A DNA stretch of 64,000 nt from positions 1,045 to 65,044 of the forward strand of contig JAKSBK010000148.1 of assembly GCA_022361155.1 (NCBI GenBank). The letters run 5' to 3'. Made by a program: the position numbers and the translations under genes. Of this stretch, positions 11,341 through 19,933 are shown piece by piece. Positions within the stretch are counted from its first letter, which is position 1, and every line of letters starts with the position of its first letter. This DNA is from Pseudomonadota bacterium. Its GTDB lineage: Bacteria > Myxococcota_A > Polyangia > Polyangiales > JAKSBK01. The notes under the pieces were generated by a model. That model was not told the DNA's origin. It searched no databases and saw only the letters and a list, made by a program, of their open reading frames with translations.

Positions 11341-13647
11341 TCAGCTGGGATGCCAAAGCGCGACAAGCAACCGTGCTTCGGGCTGGTGGGTCGAGAGCAT
11401 CAGGATCTTGTCGCGGTAGGGCAGGGCTGCCATGTGGCGCGTGTTGAAGGGCAGCTTGTCGATCAGCGTCTGCCAGCGTTTGGCGGCGGGATCATAGACC
11501 TGCACCGACTTTGCGGCACGCATGCTTCTGCCGTCCCGCACCGAGCCGCCGATCAAGTACAGTCGCTCCCGAAGCGCGAGCAGATGTCCTGACAAGCGAG
11601 GCCGAGAGGGACAGCTCAGCGGGGCGAAGCGCTGCTGGGCGAAGTCGAACACCAGGCAGTCGCCGACGAGCTGGAAGCCTTCGCGCATGCCACCGATGAT
11701 GTAGTAGCGCCCGTTCAACGTGGCAGCGGCGAAGGCGCGGCGCGGTCCCGGCATGCGCACACGCTGCGTCACGAAAGGCTCGCTCGCCTGGTCCGTGGGG
11801 GCGCTGAGGATGCTCGTGACATGGTCGAAGGCTTGCATCCCCTTGCGTGCCGGGTCGTAGTTCAGACCGCCGAAGATCCAGGTCCGCTCGCCGTGCTCGG
11901 CGATCCCGAACTGGGTGCGCCCGCGGGGCAGGCCTGGCCGGCGGCTCCAGCGCTCCGTCTTGAAGTCGAACGCGTACGCGTCCGCGTGGGATACCGCCGC
12001 CGAGCCATCGTGGCCAAAACCGCCCATCACCACGGCGTGATCCGAGCCTGCATTGGTGCGCATGCTCTGCCGAGCATGCGGATAATCGGCGACGCGCTGC
12101 CAGCGTAGCGAGGGGAGATGCAGGCGCCAGCCCTGTGCCACGAAATTCGACGGTTCAAAGGCGTGCTGCTCCAGGGTGTTGTTGCCCCCAACGAAGTACA
12201 CGAAATCGCCCTTGACGAAGATCGCCTGGCGGTTCTTGGCAACGCCGGGGTAGTCCATGCTCCAGGACCAAAAATGGCCGGGCTCGAGACCTCGGCTGGC
12301 TTCCGTCTCGTCTAGCTTGCGTGCGTCTGCGCTGCCCCCATCCGATGGCACGGCGGAATCGACGGGCAGCCGCTCCACATGGCGCGTGCGGCCGGAGGTG
12401 TGCATGCCGCTTATGCCACCAATGGCGAGCAACTCGCCTTCGGAGCCCGGCACCAGCTGGTGGAAGAAGCGGGGGAACGCGAGCTTGCCTGCGGGCCGCC
12501 AGCGAGCCGTGCCAACGCGCCAGGCATAGAGCGTGCCCCCGCGCGCCGACGCGTACACTCGGTCGCCAATTCCATACGCCGATAGCCCGAAGGCCTTGCC
12601 CGGAAACTCCGGTCCCTGTCCCCAAGCGCCCGTTTGGGGGTCGAAGACGTGCACTTCGCGCGAGAGCCTGCGCTCGGGCGTGATGCCTCCGATCGCGACG
12701 ATCCGGCCAGCTGCGGCCGCGACTCCTAGAGCCCGGCACTTGAACGGCGCGGGGATCTCGCGCCAGGTCGCCCCGGGTCTTGCAAGGTCGAGCGCCAGCA
12801 AAGCGTCATGCCATCGAGCCTCGCGCGGCCCTCCCGAAAGACGCCAGCCGCCTGCCAGGTACACGTCGTGGCCGAGCAATGCGGCGCCGTGGGACGAGCG
12901 CGCGGCCGGCAACGGCGGCAATCGATTCCATCGCCCGCGTTGCGGATCGAAACAGGTGCTCTCATTCAGCGACGCCATGTGAGTTGGATCACCCCGCCGA
13001 TTGTGGATGCGCAGCCCGCCGAAGGCGCAGATGCGCCCCGCGTGGGCGACCAGCGCTGCGCTCTGGACGCCACCTGCAGCGAGCCGTGAGATTTCCTCCC
13101 AGTGGCGACCCCCATCGAGGGCGGTTTTCCCGAGGGCAGCGGTTGTCCCGAAAGCAACGCGCCACAGCGAGCGAGATTGGCCTTCCCGGGAATACCGGTG
13201 CGGCACCCCCGCGTAGCCGCCCAGCACATAGACGTGCTGCCCATCCGACGCAGCGCCGAAGCTTGTAACCGCAACCGGCATGGGTGGCAGCAGGCCGAAT
13301 AAGACCTGAACATGGTCGGCCGCTGGCGCGAGCGGGTTGATTTCATTGTGGGACTGGAGCTGCCGTGGCTGCTGGGATGCAGCCGCCGAGGAACGCGCCG
13401 TCGAAGCGGCGTGCGCCGGCGGCGCGCTCGAGCCGCCACAGCCGGCGAGCACCACGCCCATCGCCAACAGGCTGGTGCAAGCTGGGATCAAGACCCTGCA
13501 AACCCGGTGGCCGGGCCCGTGCGCTACCTCCTGGTCAGGCGACGGCAGCCAGCGATCCCTCTTCAGGGCTGCAGCCACCGACGATCCCTTTCTGAAGGGC
13601 TTGCGGCGTGTGCGATTGCACGGATCGAATCGGCTGAAGGGTAGCAT
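11341..13647 (-). CDS. Kelch-repeat (double beta-propeller) lipoprotein
   Basis: Repeated Kelch blades are present (HVYVLGGY, RICAFGGL, DVYLAGGW, RIVAIGGI, LLAIGGI, FVYFVGGN, AVVMGGF, TWIFGGL, YYIIGGM, LYLIGGS). The lipobox is VLAGCGG. ATG 13647 is preferred over the listed GTG 13677 because a good sigma70-like promoter (13678-13705) would start transcription downstream of 13677. Confidence 0.8.
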   Translation of the reverse strand: MLPFSRFDPCNRTRRKPFRKGSSVAAALKRDRWLPSPDQEVAHGPGHRVCRVLIPACTSLLAMGVVLAGCGGSSAPPAHAASTARSSAAASQQPRQLQSHNEINPLAPAADHVQVLFGLLPPMPVAVTSFGAASDGQHVYVLGGYAGVPHRYSREGQSRSLWRVAFGTTAALGKTALDGGRHWEEISRLAAGGVQSAALVAHAGRICAFGGLRIHNRRGDPTHMASLNESTCFDPQRGRWNRLPPLPAARSSHGAALLGHDVYLAGGWRLSGGPREARWHDALLALDLARPGATWREIPAPFKCRALGVAAAAGRIVAIGGITPERRLSREVHVFDPQTGAWGQGPEFPGKAFGLSAYGIGDRVYASARGGTLYAWRVGTARWRPAGKLAFPRFFHQLVPGSEGELLAIGGISGMHTSGRTRHVERLPVDSAVPSDGGSADARKLDETEASRGLEPGHFWSWSMDYPGVAKNRQAIFVKGDFVYFVGGNNTLEQHAFEPSNFVAQGWRLHLPSLRWQRVADYPHARQSMRTNAGSDHAVVMGGFGHDGSAAVSHADAYAFDFKTERWSRRPGLPRGRTQFGIAEHGERTWIFGGLNYDPARKGMQAFDHVTSILSAPTDQASEPFVTQRVRMPGPRRAFAAATLNGRYYIIGGMREGFQLVGDCLVFDFAQQRFAPLSCPSRPRLSGHLLALRERLYLIGGSVRDGRSMRAAKSVQVYDPAAKRWQTLIDKLPFNTRHMAALPYRDKILMLSTHQPEARLLVALWHPS

Positions 13648-13677
13648 CCGGACCTCGGCATTCGTAATCGCCGCCAC

Positions 13678-13705
13678 GTTATACGACTTTGAAAATCAAA
13701 GTCAA
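13678..13705 (-). promoter_or_regulatory. candidate sigma70-type promoter of the Kelch gene
   Basis: On the minus strand: TTGACT (13705-13700), a 16-nt spacer, then TATAAC (13683-13678). The -35 and spacer are formed by AT-rich box 1. Confidence 0.4.
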
Positions 13706-13709
13706 ATTC
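13689..13709. promoter_or_regulatory. AT-rich box 1 (TTGAAAATCAAAGTCAAATTC), candidate Fur-family or other metalloregulator operator
   Basis: 20 of 21 nt are identical to box 2, which lies 179 bp downstream. It is built of hexamers GAAAAT-CAAAGT-CAAATT, and it forms an isolated AT island in otherwise very GC-rich DNA. Confidence 0.5.
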
Positions 13710-13867: not shown

Positions 13868-13888
13868 TTGAAAATCAAAGTCAATTTC
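13868..13888. promoter_or_regulatory. AT-rich box 2 (TTGAAAATCAAAGTCAATTTC), candidate metalloregulator operator
   Basis: Second copy of the 21-mer. It contains the inverted hexamers TTGAAA ... TTTCAA. It lies between the candidate promoter and ATG 13904. Confidence 0.5.
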
Positions 13889-13903
13889 AAATTTGTCCCA
13901 AGC

Positions 13904-16102
13904 ATGAGACTCCGGTTACCACAGCAGTCGTTGAGAGCGCGAAGCCGCGACCGGCTGTGGACGGGCAGCGCCGTCCGAGTCGCGCATGCCAGTCGCAAGC
14001 CGCGTCAAGGGGATGCATGGGGACACGGGGGACACAAGTCGCCGCCTGGGCTGCACAGCCAGGCCGGAATACCGGCAGCACACGCCTTTCCGGGAAGCCG
14101 GGCACCGCTCAGGCGGCGATTCCTGTGCTGTACGTGGGTAATGGCCGTGGTGGGCGCCGGGGGCCTCGCGAGGTCCGAGCGGGCGATTGCCCAGGGACCA
14201 TCCGACCAGTCCCGGAGCGACCACGAGCAGCCAGCCCAACGCAGCGCGCCACCGCAGGATGGGCAGGAGCAGCCCGCCGAGGTGATCGTCGTCACCGGCT
14301 CGCGCCGCGAGGAGCGGGCCCGTGACGCGGTCGTCGCGACCGAGGTCATCGGCCGGCACGCCATCGAACAGAGCGGGACGCGCAACGTCGGGGAGTTGCT
14401 GCAGGAACGCGCCGGCCTGCAGCTCAGGCGATCGTACCGGGGCAGCGCGCTTCTGTTGCGCGGGCTGGGCTCGGAATACACCCTCGTGTTGGTCAATGGC
14501 GACCGTGTGCCAGGTCGGATCGGGGGGGCGATCGATCTGTCGCGCTACGGTGTCGAGAACGTCGAACGTGTGGAAATCGTGCGCGGGCCGAGCTCGGCGC
14601 TCTACGGTGCCGACGCCCTGGGCGGTGTGATCAACATCATCACGCGCAGGCCGCACGCAGGGCTCGAAGGCGACGCGCTGCTGAGCGTTGGGCAAAACGG
14701 CAGCCTGGATCTCACGTCGCGCGTGGGGGGCCGGCCGGCGCGGCGCGTCGACTTCCAGCTAACGGCGGGTCTGCATCGAGCCGGTGCGTTTCGCAGCGGC
14801 GCGGTAGAGGCCACTCGAGGCAGCGCTCGCCGGCAGTGGTCGGCGGGCCTGCGCGTAGGACTGCATGCCGGCACCTCGCACGAGCTTCGCGCGCAGGCGG
14901 ATTATGTGCAGCTCGAGCTGCGCGGGATCGACGAGGGTGCCGGATCTGCCGTGTTCGATCGCACGCAGTTGCAGGAGCAGCTGGTCGCAAGTGTCGAGCA
15001 GCGTCTGGGCGTCTCGGACGCGGCGCTCCTTGTCAGCAGGGTGAGCTATAACGAGTTCCGCGAGCAATACCTGCTCGACCAGCGCCAGGGCAGCGCGCTC
15101 GACAAGGACGAAGACAACCGCGAGCGGCTCGCGCAGGCGACGCAGCTGCTGCATCTGCGGGCATCCGGCGTGCATGAGCTGAGCTTTGGTCTGGAGGGGC
15201 TGTCGCAGCAGCTGGACTCGCCTCGTATTGACAGCCGGGGCCGCCGCGTACGCCTGTCGGTGTTCGGCCAGGATGAGTGGCAAGTGCTGGTCCAGGGCCA
15301 GACGCGGCTGCGCGTGGTGCCGGGCTTGAGGCTCGACGCCGACTCGCAATTCGGCCGCCAGCTTTCTCCCAAGCTCGCACTGCGGCTGGACGCCGGCCCG
15401 GCGCTGGTGCTGCGTGCCATGTACGGGCGCGGCTTCCGAGCCCCGTCGTTCAAGGAGCTGCTGCTGCGTTTCGAGAATCCCACCGCAGGCTATGCCGTAT
15501 CGGGAAACCCGGACCTGCGCGCGGAACGCAGTCATGGCGTCGATCTAGGTGTCGCGTGGCGGCCTCACGACGTGCTCGACCTGCGAACCAGCCTCTTCCG
15601 TAATGACCTCGACGGCATGATAGCGGTGGTCATGCTCGACACGAGCGCGACAGGTCGGCGTTTTTCCTATCAGAACCTCCGCTCGGCATGGACCATGGGA
15701 GTGGAGTCGGCCGCCGAGTTGCGCCCGGGCGGCGTTTTCGCGTTGAGTCTCGCTCACACCCTCACGCAAACGTGGGATGCCGACAAGCACCGCCGCCTCG
15801 AAGGTCGCCCCCTGCATCGACTGACAGCAGCACCCCGCTTTCGTTGCTCGGACTGGGGATCCGACGCCTCGGTACGTGTCGCGCTTCTGCTCGGGCGGGT
15901 CTTTTACGAGGACGAGAACAACGATGGCGTCGAAGAACAGCTGCGCGCCCCGGTGCTCGCGCAGGTCGATCTGCGCCTGGCCAAGCACTTTGGCCGTGAA
16001 TTCGAGTTGGCCTTTGGCATCGACAATCTTCTCGATGCCGGAGATCGATACTCTGTCCTGAGGCCCCGCACCGCGTATGGGGCGGTGCGGGGCCGCTATT
16101 GA
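13904..16102 (+). CDS. TonB-dependent receptor (HmuR/BtuB-like)
   Basis: Plug motifs are present (VIVVTGSRREERARDAVVATEVIGRHAIEQSGTRNVGELLQERAGLQL, LLRGLGSEYTLVLVNGDRV, VERVEIVRGPSSALYGADALGGVINIITR). The barrel ends in RTAYGAVRGRY with a terminal aromatic residue. The listed TTG start at 13868 lies inside box 2, so ATG 13904 is used. The real start and signal peptide remain uncertain; RRRFLCCTWVMAVVGAGGLA looks like the hydrophobic core. Confidence 0.85.
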   Translation: MRLRLPQQSLRARSRDRLWTGSAVRVAHASRKPRQGDAWGHGGHKSPPGLHSQAGIPAAHAFPGSRAPLRRRFLCCTWVMAVVGAGGLARSERAIAQGPSDQSRSDHEQPAQRSAPPQDGQEQPAEVIVVTGSRREERARDAVVATEVIGRHAIEQSGTRNVGELLQERAGLQLRRSYRGSALLLRGLGSEYTLVLVNGDRVPGRIGGAIDLSRYGVENVERVEIVRGPSSALYGADALGGVINIITRRPHAGLEGDALLSVGQNGSLDLTSRVGGRPARRVDFQLTAGLHRAGAFRSGAVEATRGSARRQWSAGLRVGLHAGTSHELRAQADYVQLELRGIDEGAGSAVFDRTQLQEQLVASVEQRLGVSDAALLVSRVSYNEFREQYLLDQRQGSALDKDEDNRERLAQATQLLHLRASGVHELSFGLEGLSQQLDSPRIDSRGRRVRLSVFGQDEWQVLVQGQTRLRVVPGLRLDADSQFGRQLSPKLALRLDAGPALVLRAMYGRGFRAPSFKELLLRFENPTAGYAVSGNPDLRAERSHGVDLGVAWRPHDVLDLRTSLFRNDLDGMIAVVMLDTSATGRRFSYQNLRSAWTMGVESAAELRPGGVFALSLAHTLTQTWDADKHRRLEGRPLHRLTAAPRFRCSDWGSDASVRVALLLGRVFYEDENNDGVEEQLRAPVLAQVDLRLAKHFGREFELAFGIDNLLDAGDRYSVLRPRTAYGAVRGRY

Positions 16103-16121
16103 GGGCAAGGAGGCAAGACCC

Positions 16122-17861
16122 ATGTGTCTGCACCATACGAGAGCACGCGATCGGATCACATCGGTGTTGCCAAGGCCACACCAAACCATCGTGGTGGAAC
16201 GCACCGCGCTGGTCGCTGCTGCCGTCGTGCTGGCAGGGTGTGCGGGTGATCTCGAAGCCACGCAGGATCCCATGGGCGACCCGGCCACCACGCCCGGCGG
16301 CAGTAACCCGAGTCGCGATGGGGCGTTCGCGTTTTCGGAGGAAGCCTCCGGCCACGTTGTGGTGAGCGCCGATGCGAGCGACCGCATGCTGTGGCGCTAC
16401 CTCGATCTCGACCAGCGCAGGGCGCTCGAAGAAGGCAGTGCGGGCTGGGACCTGGCGTTCAAGCGTTACCGGGTGCTCAGCAACGGTGGAGTCAGCGGTC
16501 CCGGAGGGGTTCAAGTCGCAGCGCTCGTGGGCAAGAGCTTCGAGCAGGTCGAAAGGGCTCCCGACTCGGGCTGGAGCGTCGACCAACCCGATGGGCCGGA
16601 CGGCGACCAAGAGGTCGACAACGTCTTCACCAACGGGGTCGACACAGAAGGGACGGGTGCCTGGTACGCGTACGACCCGGCCACGCACGTGTTGACACCC
16701 GAGGACGTCACCTACGCCGTGGTTTCGACTCAGGGTCGCTTCTACAAGCTGCGCTTCGAGGACTACTACGACAGCGCGGGCACGCCCGGCCACCTGAGCT
16801 TTCGCTTCGCAGCCATCGACGCGCCCCCAAAGGGTGCTCCCGCAGTGCCGGGACAGCCCCCTCGGGCGCCCGCGATGCCCGCGGGCACGCCGACCGCGCC
16901 GGTCATGCCACCCGTTACGATACCGAGCGCTGCCCTGCGCGTCGACGCCTCGGACCGCATGAAGTGGGTCTACGTCGGTGTTCAAGACGGCCTCGTGGTG
17001 CCGAAGACCCCCGAGACCGACCTCGGTTGGGATCTGGCCCTGCGGCGCACCGGCATCCGCACCAATTCCGGCACCAGCGGGGCGGGGCTCGGTGGTGCCA
17101 AGGAGGACGACAGCATGCTCGCCTTCGCCGACGTCTCCGAAAGCTCGACGCTCGCGTTCGAGGTGGATGAAGTTGCCGGCGGTGCGTCCCCGGGCAGCAT
17201 GCCGGCGAGCAGCAATCCGGTTCTCGCGGACTGGTACGACTACGACGTCGCGACGCATCGAGTGAGCCCCAAGGAGCGCACCTTCTTGCTGCGCACGGCT
17301 GCGGGCCATTACGCCAAGCTCAGGGTCTGGGACTGGAAGGACGGCGTGTACAGCCTGTCGCTGGCTCCGGTCGAGCGCCGGGTGCAGATCGTCGAGCTCG
17401 AGCTGGACGCCTCCAAGCCGGACGCTTGGACGTACCTGAGCTTGCGGGACGCCAGACAGGTCGAGATCGCGGATCCAGCCCAAAGCGACCTCTGGGACCT
17501 CGCCCTGCGGCGCACCCAAATGCGTACCAACTCCGGCACAAGCGGTACGGGCAAGGGCGGGGCCGCGCAGGCGCACGTGATGATGATCGATGCCCTTGCG
17601 ATGCTGCCCTCCGCGGGCTGGCAGGCCGACCAAGAACGTCCTGCGAGCGATCCATCGGCACCACCGCAGAGCCTCAACCCGGTGCTCTCCGAGTGGTTTG
17701 ACTACGATGCGAGCACGCATCGCGTGACACCGCGCAAGGTGGTGTTCGCGCTACGCACTGCCGACGGTCACGGCGCGGCCGTACAGGTGCTCGGGTACCG
17801 CGACGGCGTCTACTCGCTGCGCATGGCCTTTGCAGGCCCGGGCAGCGGGAGCTTCCGATGA
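16122..17861 (+). CDS. HmuY-like lipoprotein with three tandem HmuY-type domains
   Basis: An RBS (aaggagg, 16107-16113) precedes ATG 16122. The lipobox is VLAGCAG. Three copies of the HmuY signature are present: WDLAFKRYRVLSNGGVSGPGG, WDLALRRTGIRTNSGTSGAGLGGA and WDLALRRTQMRTNSGTSGTGKGGA (compare P. gingivalis HmuY WDMALHRYDVRLNCGESGKGKGGA). Each is followed by a ...KLR(F/V)...DGVYSL strand motif. Confidence 0.85.
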   Translation: MCLHHTRARDRITSVLPRPHQTIVVERTALVAAAVVLAGCAGDLEATQDPMGDPATTPGGSNPSRDGAFAFSEEASGHVVVSADASDRMLWRYLDLDQRRALEEGSAGWDLAFKRYRVLSNGGVSGPGGVQVAALVGKSFEQVERAPDSGWSVDQPDGPDGDQEVDNVFTNGVDTEGTGAWYAYDPATHVLTPEDVTYAVVSTQGRFYKLRFEDYYDSAGTPGHLSFRFAAIDAPPKGAPAVPGQPPRAPAMPAGTPTAPVMPPVTIPSAALRVDASDRMKWVYVGVQDGLVVPKTPETDLGWDLALRRTGIRTNSGTSGAGLGGAKEDDSMLAFADVSESSTLAFEVDEVAGGASPGSMPASSNPVLADWYDYDVATHRVSPKERTFLLRTAAGHYAKLRVWDWKDGVYSLSLAPVERRVQIVELELDASKPDAWTYLSLRDARQVEIADPAQSDLWDLALRRTQMRTNSGTSGTGKGGAAQAHVMMIDALAMLPSAGWQADQERPASDPSAPPQSLNPVLSEWFDYDASTHRVTPRKVVFALRTADGHGAAVQVLGYRDGVYSLRMAFAGPGSGSFR

Positions 17862-19006
17862 TGTCGCTTTCAGACACGCAGCAGGCGCTGCATCCGGCCG
17901 AGGTCATGCCGCGCGAGCTCTACCAGCAGGTCAGGCCGCAGTTCTTGCAGGGCATGGTGGAGCTCAAGCGCCGGCGTCGCGTGGCGCTCGAGCCCTACGC
18001 CACCTTGGTGTTCGAGAATCGAGATACGGTGCTTTTCCAGATCCAGGAGGTGCTGCGCATAGCGCCTGATGCGAGCCCGGCGCGCGTGCGGCGCCAGATC
18101 GACGAATACGATCCGCTCGTGCCGCGTGCAGATGAGCTGCGGGCTACCCTGATGTTCGACGGCCAACCCGGAGACCAGAGCGCGTCGCGGGCATTACAGA
18201 TCGGCCGCGCGGGCGCGTTGAGCCTGCGCGTGGGCGACGCCGAGATTCAGGCACAACCGCTCGAGGACGAGCGAGAGGTGGCACACCCGGTTCAGTTCCT
18301 GCGTTTTGCTCTGACGCGCGAGATCGCGCGGGCACTCGATGACCCCGAATCAGCGGCCGCGCTGCATTTGCGAGCTCGCGACCACATCGCAAGCGCACCG
18401 CTCGCGCCCGAGACCCGCTCCGAGCTCTTGCAGGATTTGCAGCCATGCGCCGGCGTGGCTCGTTTGGCGGCGGTTCAGCGCAGGGAAGTCCATCCGCAAC
18501 GGGGGGAGCATGGCGCAACCGCGCAGGGCACGAGCTGTGGCGTCCGGATCCCTGGTCGTGGCACCGGTCCCGGCTCGACCCACGCTGGCCGCGCGCCCTG
18601 CTGGCCCGAGATCGTGCGTTCCGGAGCCATTACGGTGGACCTGCTAGGCTATCGGGCCTGGGTGGACGCGCACGAGGTCCATTTGACTCCGGCGGAGTTT
18701 CGGCTGCTGCGGGAACTGCTCGGCCATCCGGGCCAGGTGCGCTCGCGTCGCGAGCTGCTGCGCGATGCCTGGGACATCCGGGGAAACGTGGTCACCCGCA
18801 CGGTAGACACCCATGTTACGCGCCTGCGCGCGAAGTTGGGTCGTGCGGGAAGCAGCATCGAGTGCGTGCGGGGTGCAGGCTATCGCTACACCCAAGTACG
18901 GGACCTGGCACGCATTGGTCCTCCGGCCCGATTGGCCGATCCGCCCGCGCAAGTGGCTGCGGCCTCGTTTCGACGACCAGCGCGCACCAGGAGCAGACCG
19001 GCATGA
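17858..19006 (+). CDS. DUF3501-like domain fused to an OmpR/PhoB-type winged-helix DNA-binding domain
   Basis: The ATG overlaps the HmuY stop (ATGA at 17858-17861). The N-terminal ~190 aa read RELYQQVRPQFLQGMVELKRRRRVALEPYATLVFENRDTVLFQIQEVLRIA...IDEYDPLVPRADELRATLMF, matching my recollection of DUF3501 proteins. The C-terminal ~100 aa read LLGYRAWVDAHEVHLTPAEFRLLRELLGHPGQVRSRRELLRDAWDIRGNVVTRTVDTHVTRLRAKLGRAGSSIECVRGAGYRY, a canonical Trans_reg_C domain. No stop codon separates the two parts. Confidence 0.7.
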   Translation: MMSLSDTQQALHPAEVMPRELYQQVRPQFLQGMVELKRRRRVALEPYATLVFENRDTVLFQIQEVLRIAPDASPARVRRQIDEYDPLVPRADELRATLMFDGQPGDQSASRALQIGRAGALSLRVGDAEIQAQPLEDEREVAHPVQFLRFALTREIARALDDPESAAALHLRARDHIASAPLAPETRSELLQDLQPCAGVARLAAVQRREVHPQRGEHGATAQGTSCGVRIPGRGTGPGSTHAGRAPCWPEIVRSGAITVDLLGYRAWVDAHEVHLTPAEFRLLRELLGHPGQVRSRRELLRDAWDIRGNVVTRTVDTHVTRLRAKLGRAGSSIECVRGAGYRYTQVRDLARIGPPARLADPPAQVAAASFRRPARTRSRPA

Positions 19007-19275
19007 AACGCAACGACTCCAAACCCAATCACCCGCCTATGCGCCATGGTTGCCGGCAGACACGCCTCGCTCAAGGGGCAGTCGCCGCGGTGGACATGTG
19101 CGAGTGCGGCATGATTCAGCTGCACGTGGGCGCCATCACGCTGCGACTGGAGCCCCGGGCGCTGTCGGAGCTGCTGGCGACCTTGGGGCAGGCTGTTGCC
19201 GAGCACGATCGAACCAGCGCCAGCGAGCAGCCGGCGGCCGTTCCGTTTCGCCGACGGCACCGGGGCGAGGCATGA
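19003..19275 (+). CDS. small hypothetical protein (90 aa)
   Basis: The ATG overlaps the previous stop (ATGA at 19003-19006), suggesting translational coupling. It contains the Cys-rich motif CRQ...DMCECGMIQLHVGAITLRLEPRALSELLATLGQA. I recognise no family. Confidence 0.45.
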   Translation: MKRNDSKPNHPPMRHGCRQTRLAQGAVAAVDMCECGMIQLHVGAITLRLEPRALSELLATLGQAVAEHDRTSASEQPAAVPFRRRHRGEA

Positions 19276-19387
19276 GTCGCCGCCCGGCCATGCTGCCCCG
19301 CACGATCGAACGGCCCCCGGTCGCTCCGCCCCGGCGTTGCTGGCTGGGCTGGCCGCAGAACAAAGCAAACACAAAGGAAGCAAACCC

Positions 19388-19933
19388 ATGATCAATCCAG
19401 GAACCAAGTTGCCGGAGCTCACGGCCCCGGCTTGCGTCGGTGTGCAAGAGGGCAAGGAGTTCTCTACCTTCACGACGCGCAGCGTCGCAGGCAAGTGGCT
19501 GGTGCTGTACACGTACCCCAAGGACTTCACCTTCGTGTGTCCAACCGAGATTGTGGAGTTCGACCGGAACCTGCCCGCTTTCGACAAGCGTGACGCGCTG
19601 CTGGTGGGCGGTTCCACCGACAACGAATACGCCCATCTGGCGTGGAGGCGAAGCGACGAGGCGCTGCGGGGGCTTTCCCACCCGCTCATCCACATCTCTC
19701 CCGAGCTCGCGCAAGCGCTCGACATCGTGCATCCGAGCGCCGGGGTTGCGCTTCGCGCCACGATCATCAGCGACCCCGAAGGCGTCGTGCGTTTTGCGAG
19801 TGCCAATTACCTCAGCGTTGGCCGCAACGTCGAAGAAGTGCTGCGTGTGCTCGACGGCCTCCAAACGGGAGAGCTCACGGCCTGCAACTGGAGACCGGGA
19901 GAGGTCACGCTTTCCGGGAGCGGGACGCGATGA
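19388..19933 (+). CDS. ahpC: AhpC/Prx1-type 2-Cys peroxiredoxin
   Basis: The internal ATG 19388 is preceded by aaaggaag. Motifs: KWLVLYTYPKDFTFVCPTEIVEF (peroxidatic Cys), DNEYAHLAWRR, VALRATIISDPEGVVR, and LQTGELTACNWRPGE (resolving Cys region). Confidence 0.9.
   Translation: MINPGTKLPELTAPACVGVQEGKEFSTFTTRSVAGKWLVLYTYPKDFTFVCPTEIVEFDRNLPAFDKRDALLVGGSTDNEYAHLAWRRSDEALRGLSHPLIHISPELAQALDIVHPSAGVALRATIISDPEGVVRFASANYLSVGRNVEEVLRVLDGLQTGELTACNWRPGEVTLSGSGTR

Follow-up and report, generated by a model that had tools for sequence, protein, structure and literature searches.

A DUF3501 domain fused to a receiver-less PhoB-type winged helix in a heme-uptake operon with Fur-type boxes from an uncultured myxobacterium

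The fusion gene and its operon

We describe a gene that joins a DUF3501 domain to an OmpR/PhoB-type DNA-binding domain and that lies at positions 17858 to 19006, on the forward strand, of a stretch of 64,000 nucleotides from contig JAKSBK010000148.1 (assembly GCA_022361155.1); this whole stretch is called the window in what follows. The 1149-nt open reading frame (ORF) is open throughout, with no in-frame stop, and encodes a protein of 382 amino acids (aa) composed of a DUF3501 domain, a linker, a PhoB-type winged helix that lacks a receiver domain, and a C-terminal tail. The gene is the third cistron of an operon that encodes a TonB-dependent receptor, a triple-HmuY lipoprotein, the fusion protein, a small protein of 90 aa (here called small90) and possibly an AhpC-like peroxiredoxin.

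The receptor gene (13868..16102, forward strand) encodes plug and beta-barrel domains of the heme/B12 type and matches TIGR01785 (TonB-hemin) with E = 3e-52; its real start is probably near 14141. It is followed by the gene for the lipoprotein of 594 aa (16077..17861, forward strand), in which three stretches match PF14064 (E = 6.4e-53). The ATG of the fusion gene at 17858 overlaps the TGA stop of hmuY in an ATGA, with a good Shine-Dalgarno sequence ahead of it, and a second ATGA at 19003 joins the stop of the fusion to the ATG of small90, whose own Shine-Dalgarno sequence, AGGAG, is found within the tail of the fusion, 9 nt ahead of that ATG. Because of the Shine-Dalgarno sequence at its start and the ATGA overlaps at both ends, the arrangement indicates that the fusion would be co-translated with the operon. 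Downstream of the fusion, the window encodes the AhpC-like peroxiredoxin, a TauD-like dioxygenase and a large non-ribosomal peptide synthetase (NRPS).

DUF3501 is widespread, from archaea to mitochondria. It is known only as the product of the third gene of the aerobic-type rubrerythrin system RBR-RFO-DUF3501 (PMC5114695, PMC7050145), a three-component system described by Cardenas, Quatrini & Holmes in 2016 (PMC5114695), and its function has not been established experimentally.

Domain anatomy of the protein

The DUF3501 domain occupies aa 12-194 (17891..18439, forward strand) and was recognised by its Pfam match, its conserved positions, its fold and the clade to which it belongs. PF12007 aligns over positions 3-187 of its 187-position profile with E = 1.4e-35 and 123.4 bits, for a cut-off of 25 bits. 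Compared with 66 members of the family, this half of the protein keeps 25 of the 29 positions that are conserved in at least 80% of sequences, and all of the invariant residues (R26, R40, R41, E53 and E64) are present. In an AlphaFold2 model built from a curated alignment, the predicted local distance difference test score (pLDDT) is mostly above 90 across the domain, and an extra helix is seen at aa 199-211. Using Foldseek, the N-terminal half of this model was matched to 3fjv (E = 1.9e-14, TM score 0.84-0.88, root-mean-square deviation 2.3-2.7 Å), and the domain alone matched no other fold in the PDB; as 3fjv is the only match, the fold offers no hint on function or ligand.

The winged helix occupies aa 251-345 (18608..18892, forward strand). 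PF00486 (Trans_reg_C) matches aa 273-343 with E = 6.4e-21 and 74.7 bits and, in a scan of the whole genome with the Trans_reg_C model, the domain reaches 78 bits, a value inside the span of 74-93 bits seen for the genome's six remaining OmpR-type domains. Its identity to PhoB-like C-terminal domains is 50-60%, no known regulator exceeds 60%, and the closest winged helix of the same genome is 51-54% identical. AlphaFold2 folds the domain with confidence, and Foldseek pairs the C-terminal half with the effector domains of PhoB and GlnR (TM score 0.87-0.90). Of the protein, NCBIfam models for response regulators (CseB, PhoB, MtrA and others) cover no more than aa ~250-345, the effector domain alone. 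Pfam gave no match to the receiver domain PF00072 in the protein and, when 25 full-length response regulators were compared by tblastn with every frame of positions 17701-19400, no receiver remnant was detected and only the winged helix was matched.

The linker (aa 195-250, 18440..18607, forward strand; roughly 55 aa) begins with the short helix at aa 199-211 and continues as a G/A/R/P-rich stretch predicted to be disordered, with pLDDT below 50 at aa 214-250; its cysteines are Cys197, Cys227 and Cys248. We found no homologue of the linker using phmmer over 1.84 billion cluster representatives or using BLASTP; one apparent homology, a phmmer stretch covering aa 195-344 of the fusion in the protein P0063, was reduced by BLASTP to the winged helix alone. 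The A/R/P-rich tail (aa 346-382, 18893..19003, forward strand) likewise has pLDDT values below 50 at aa 355-376. A normal coding signature is present in both domains, with a GC content at the second and third codon positions (GC2, GC3) of 0.43 and 0.79 in DUF3501 and of 0.51 and 0.77 in the winged helix. In the linker, the signature is flat and without codon periodicity (GC1/2/3 = 0.77/0.73/0.73) and, in the tail, it is inverted (GC2 0.73, GC3 0.57). Because of this codon composition, the linker and tail seem to have been recently recruited from DNA that was once non-coding or out of frame, and we infer that the tail may be former non-coding or leader DNA that is now read through.

A previous examination of these letters without database searches, hereafter the sequence-only reading, had described a DUF3501-like domain and an OmpR-type winged helix separated by a low-complexity linker, with no receiver and with ATGA overlaps to hmuY and to a small downstream ORF. 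All of this was borne out: the two domains by their Pfam scores, the lack of a receiver by Pfam and tblastn, the linker by its composition and predicted disorder, and the two overlaps by direct inspection.

Integrity of the reading frame

The sequence-only reading had also raised the alternative that the fusion results from a missed stop or a frameshift in the GC-rich linker. Three further metagenome contigs carry the whole fusion gene with 100% identity at the DNA level, giving four assemblies in all; these contigs originate from two CARD22-1 samples and from a MEGAHIT assembly of another ENA accession, and thus represent at least three samples and two assemblers. Because four assemblies carry identical DNA, an artefact of this kind is unlikely, and the fusion gene appears to be genuine and intact. 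Each of the three contigs differs from the window by 3 to 10 single-nucleotide polymorphisms (SNPs), every one of them outside the fusion gene, and owing to these differences they can be assigned to a strain slightly different from that of the window. The deficit of SNPs within the fusion gene (none seen for about 1.9 expected) is not significant. An apparent 127-nt indel between locus L003 and the window was ruled out, as it is a scaffold gap of Ns.

The same region bears on the proposal that two proteins are made, either because an indel went undetected, the G6 run at 18501-18506 being one candidate site, or because of an internal start, for example the GTG at 18614, from which a winged-helix protein of about 130 aa would be translated on its own. 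In favour of the proposal, OmpR-type proteins that are short and stand-alone are known, many winged-helix-only matches being 100-150 aa long, the linker is GC-rich and holds the G6 run, and ancestral DUF3501 genes stop 20-40 aa past the domain. However, the linker, G6 run included, is identical in the four assemblies, no convincing ribosome-binding site precedes GTG 18614 and, as there is no in-frame stop, the full-length product must be made in any case; we therefore regard two separate proteins as highly improbable.

A second genomic context for DUF3501

The genome that carries the window also possesses a canonical operon on another contig (C466:19858-22832; loci L001 and L022), which encodes a 157-aa rubrerythrin, a 492-aa CCG Fe-S protein and a 196-aa DUF3501 protein. 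A Fur-family gene, possibly PerR-like, is situated immediately upstream of this operon (C466:22554-22832).

Using a scan of GTDB species genomes, we collected 80 DUF3501 loci, of which about 60 have rubrerythrin and/or RFO immediately upstream. The DUF3501 domain of the fusion belongs to a distinct clade, made up of 17 sequences that are all from Myxococcota, with a Shimodaira-Hasegawa-like (SH-like) support of 0.999. Neither rubrerythrin nor RFO was found near DUF3501 in any of the 17 members, and no rubrerythrin or CCG-domain Fe-S oxidoreductase was present near the fusion among the ORFs scanned between 12 and 24 kb of the window. Ten members of the clade have an AhpC-like peroxiredoxin gene directly downstream of DUF3501, among them six Sorangium species, Enhygromyxa salina, Paraliomyxa miuraensis and one metagenome-assembled genome (MAG), and, at three of these ten peroxiredoxin-linked loci, genes for a TonB receptor and for HmuY also lie within 8 kb. 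One further member (L046) has a di-haem cytochrome c peroxidase downstream of DUF3501, and others have PepSY_TM or DUF5074 neighbours. The 16 members other than the fusion are all stand-alone proteins of roughly 200-250 aa (among their loci L035, L039, L042-L046, L049, L052, L099 and L107). DUF3501 genes of the clade are preceded by a Fur-type box and are often found beside TonB-receptor, HmuY, PepSY_TM or Kelch genes.

These loci show a second conserved context of DUF3501 in the Polyangia, namely a putatively iron-controlled bicistron with a peroxiredoxin near heme and iron uptake genes, of which the papers found on DUF3501 give no description. The window itself has a divergent gene for a Kelch-repeat protein (11341..13677, reverse strand), syntenic with the cluster in Paraliomyxa: its product shares 42% identity, over aa 128-777, with the Kelch protein of Paraliomyxa miuraensis (L035:5649-7688), whose gene sits directly upstream of DUF3501. 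The locus of the window is thus derived from a cluster conserved in myxobacteria (Kelch, TonB receptor, HmuY, DUF3501, peroxidase), a winged helix having been added to DUF3501, with the small90-AhpC pair behind it. The expectation that the locus would give DUF3501 a functional context was justified to the extent that it provides a setting of iron, heme and peroxide.

Two side observations concern the family rather than the fusion. The protein P0117 (281 aa) has a divergent DUF3501 domain (93 bits) and, at aa 213-267, the C-terminal part of a HemS/ChuX heme-utilisation domain; it could be another DUF3501 fusion or an artefact of gene calling. Cys-Pro dipeptides resembling heme-regulatory motifs recur in the clade, as LAACP(W/V/F) in the tails of L035, L064 and L099 and, within the domain near aa 143, as D-P-x-C-P-V-(H/Q)-Y in L039, L042 and L091. 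The idea that they form a heme-regulatory motif was set aside as speculation only, since they occur at varying positions and His-Pro stands in their place in the fusion.

Fur-type boxes and control of the operon

Two AT-rich boxes of 21 bp each, lying 179 bp apart, are found in the region of the operon promoter: box 1, TTGAAAATCAAAGTCAAATTC, at 13689..13709, and box 2, TTGAAAATCAAAGTCAATTTC, at 13868..13888, before the receptor-HmuY-fusion operon, both on the forward strand. Within the genome, the exact 21-bp motif is confined to this locus. Related boxes, with a consensus near TTGAAAATGAAAGTSAATTTC that resembles an array of Fur boxes, precede the DUF3501, small90 or TonB-receptor gene at most of the related loci, and every related locus that has such boxes is without the fusion. 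Using a weight matrix trained only on the boxes of relatives, we scanned the 5.4-Mb genome, and the two boxes of the window took the first two ranks, box 2 scoring 37.1 and box 1 scoring 36.0 of a maximum of 40.2. The next-best sites precede feoAB (contig C164) or lie in a region of contig C534, possibly a siderophore-type cluster, with MbtH/NRPS-type genes and an unannotated 882-aa ORF, and further sites precede other unannotated genes, one of which is a small Zn-ribbon-like ORF (matrix-site coordinates in this genome: C534:14958, C534:26035, C534:11704, C497:5353, C152:6581 and C164:28188). The matrix would thus outline a small Fur-type regulon, some members of which are iron-related. No box of this kind was detected in front of the window's NRPS cluster. 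The genome has three Fur-family genes. No riboswitch or other RNA was matched by Rfam in the long leader or elsewhere in the window.

We had considered the twin boxes as a private operator of the fusion protein, and this was rejected as relatives without the fusion, and iron genes of this genome, carry related boxes. Because the same boxes precede genes of relatives that have no fusion, as well as feoAB and other genes here, the visible control of the operon appears to be of Fur type and not exerted by the fusion protein, the fusion being itself a probable member of the Fur-type regulon.

These boxes also weigh on the proposal of the sequence-only reading that DUF3501 is itself a sensor of heme, iron or redox state and that the protein directly controls the promoter at 13.8 kb of its own uptake operon. 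The gene is located in a heme-uptake operon, the DUF3501 protein P0117 bears a piece of a HemS/ChuX domain, and Cys-Pro motifs are found in several members of the clade, near aa 143 or in their tails. By contrast, both promoter boxes are of Fur type and also present in relatives that have no fusion; the fusion has His-Pro at the equivalent position and not a single cysteine in its DUF3501 domain; the fold matches only 3fjv, with no hint of a ligand; and the constant neighbour of DUF3501 in relatives is a peroxidase gene and not a gene for a heme protein. We consider direct control by a DUF3501 sensor very unlikely: neither the sensor role nor control of this promoter by the fusion protein found support.

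Distribution of the fusion

To look for other examples, a word-indexed collection of 5.8 billion proteins was queried with the whole protein and with residues 1-200, the latter with a length filter favouring extended DUF3501 proteins, and the only protein recovered with both PF12007 and PF00486 was that of the window. Among the 1.84 billion cluster representatives searched with phmmer, the sole match below 1e-30 was the fusion protein itself and the others covered one half only. In 40 genomes of the same order, the DUF3501 and winged-helix halves always matched separate places. Because no second protein with both domains was found in these searches, the fusion is best described as a singleton, a lineage-specific one-off and not a conserved regulator family. 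Homologous fusions in other organisms, on whose existence the sequence-only reading had made its proposal of a one-component regulator depend, were thus found neither in the protein collections nor in the 40 genomes; the architecture that it proposed stands and a family of such regulators does not.

The closest known DUF3501 relative of the N-terminal half is 42-44% identical to it, and the canonical paralogue of the same genome 30%. Both domains are far from any known parent and yet keep the signatures of their families, which argues for constraint on each of them, although this constraint does not date the fusion. The fusion gene is probably evolutionarily young and lineage-specific.

A singleton of this kind could be a neutral or slightly deleterious accident, in which a deletion or a read-through placed the 3' half of a response-regulator gene behind a working DUF3501 gene. 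DUF3501 would then keep the peroxidase-linked job that it has in Sorangium, Enhygromyxa and Paraliomyxa, and the winged helix would be a passenger without a regulatory role or a constitutive DNA binder without useful effect. Such an origin is consistent with the uniqueness of the fusion, with the missing coding signature of linker and tail, with the stand-alone form of the 16 other members of the clade and with the failure to find a private operator. However, the winged helix is preserved as in functional regulators and its closest known parent is only 60% identical (51-54% within the genome), so that either a long divergence under constraint or an unsampled parent has to be assumed; moreover, the frame, 1149 nt long, is uninterrupted in this GC-rich genome and the gene is intact in two strains with differing flanks. 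We therefore hold an accident to be rather unlikely.

A candidate one-component regulator

The best explanation, to which we give neither more nor less than an even measure of confidence, is that the gene encodes a one-component regulator of recent origin, produced when iron is limiting, in which DUF3501 stands in the place of the receiver. The architecture, as read from the domain matches, is that of a one-component regulator, with DUF3501, linker and winged helix and with no kinase or receiver domain. Iron limitation would lift the Fur-type repression, the operon would be derepressed and the fusion protein would be made. The winged helix would then bind DNA, presumably at tandem repeats as PhoB-type domains do. 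The isolated effector domain of PhoB is active without its receiver, and a receiver-less PhoB-type domain can thus function. DUF3501 would replace the receiver as the module that permits or promotes productive DNA binding by the winged helix, and it might, for example, drive oligomerisation or make a regulated contact, perhaps with the partner that it serves on the peroxidase side in relatives. The outcome would be a second regulatory tier below Fur, tying heme and iron import to peroxide defence.

Several points weigh against a regulator of this kind. No operator specific to the fusion was found, and the only striking local motif is the shared Fur-type box. The other candidate, an A-rich direct repeat with a spacing of 11 bp (ACAAAGCAAAC/ACAAAGGAAGC, 19360-19381) before ahpC, was discarded as an operator, since it is weak and lies across the ribosome-binding site, and since it is not conserved, being absent from the orthologous spacer of locus L036. 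By their codon composition, the linker and tail look like newly recruited non-coding sequence. No search yielded a second example of the architecture, and consequently neither a date for the fusion nor selection on the fused state can be established. Lastly, the source organism is an uncultured MAG in 608 contigs.

A more specific form of the regulator, which we consider quite unlikely, is that DUF3501 acts as a module that accompanies peroxidases (rubrerythrin, AhpC-type peroxiredoxin, cytochrome c peroxidase) and signals their redox or iron state, and that here it would be wired directly to a DNA-binding domain. If true, this would be a bacterial transcription factor with a peroxidase relay as its input, coupling heme and iron import to peroxide defence, and a natural experiment showing what DUF3501 does.

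Comparison with known systems

The fusion shares with the aerobic-type rubrerythrin system a full-length DUF3501 domain with the 3fjv fold, contained in its N-terminal 194 aa. It differs in having no rubrerythrin or RFO nearby, the neighbour in its clade being an AhpC-like peroxiredoxin or a cytochrome c peroxidase, and it is the only one of the DUF3501 copies compared that bears a DNA-binding domain. As co-localisation with rubrerythrin was looked for and not found, the fusion is not part of this system.

With response regulators of the PhoB/OmpR type (1gxp, 1qqi; GlnR 8hig, 8hml), the protein has in common the effector fold, the wing and the recognition helix RTVDTHV-RLR. Unlike them, it has neither a receiver nor a phospho-acceptor Asp, and therefore no control by a histidine kinase, and behind the wing it carries a disordered tail of 37 aa. 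It falls outside the response regulators, since the receiver that defines this class was tested for and is absent.

ToxR, CadC and TcpP, as well as SARP, AfsR and EmbR, also place an OmpR-type winged helix under a non-receiver domain in one polypeptide. Their winged helix is N-terminal and is paired either with a membrane or periplasmic sensor or with a BTAD domain, whereas that of the fusion is C-terminal, in the order of response regulators, with DUF3501 as its partner and no membrane-associated domain among the domain matches. DUF3501 has never been seen before as the partner domain in this regulator role.

The DUF3501-peroxiredoxin bicistrons of Sorangium, Enhygromyxa, Paraliomyxa and MAGs belong to the same clade and resemble the window by their Fur-type box and their neighbourhood of Kelch, TonB, HmuY and AhpC-like genes. 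They differ by a stand-alone DUF3501 with the peroxidase gene directly next to it and by the absence of a winged helix within the flanks examined. A two-tier cascade, with a regulator and uptake genes under a Fur-type operator, is also found with Fur-controlled secondary regulators such as FecI-type sigma factors and PchR; these belong to unrelated protein families, and the cascade here is a putative one.

As a regulator, the fusion would add one more domain combination to the one-component systems and, as only one uncultured lineage is known to have it, it would be of small reach. Its main value is as a clue to DUF3501, which evolution has placed, at least once, where a signal-receiving domain normally stands; the link of the clade to peroxiredoxins, to heme and iron uptake and to Fur-type control is a usable lead. 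As Sorangium and Enhygromyxa are culturable and have the unfused version, the link between DUF3501 and peroxidase is directly testable.

Neighbouring genes and their relatives

The small90 gene (19003..19275, forward strand) encodes a conserved small protein with a C-x(25)-C-E-C motif, for which homologues were found in 75 of 301 genomes of the order with identities up to 64-68%. The family core can be written C-x3-RLA-x6-(V/L)D-x-C-x-CG...LH-x-GA-x-TLR. Six members of the family gave no Pfam match even at E <= 10, and the idea of a HemP/HmuP-like protein was dropped on this account. From its conservation, small90 is a real gene of an uncharacterised small-protein family without a Pfam entry.

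In relatives, small90 lies upstream of orthologous TonB receptors, or of AhpC together with a homologue of a 179-aa ORF of the window, and it is usually the first gene behind a Fur-type box (L025-L033, L036); neither a winged helix nor DUF3501 was seen adjoining it in these relatives. The receptor orthologues of relatives are 35-44% identical to that of the window and adjoin small90 or DUF3501. The AhpC-like 2-Cys peroxiredoxin of the window (19388..19933, forward strand), recognised by Pfam AhpC-TSA and by the NCBIfam model peroxiredoxin C, is 67% identical to the small90-linked AhpC of L036. Two loci, L031 and L033, have a second, paralogous small ORF in tandem between small90 and ahpC.

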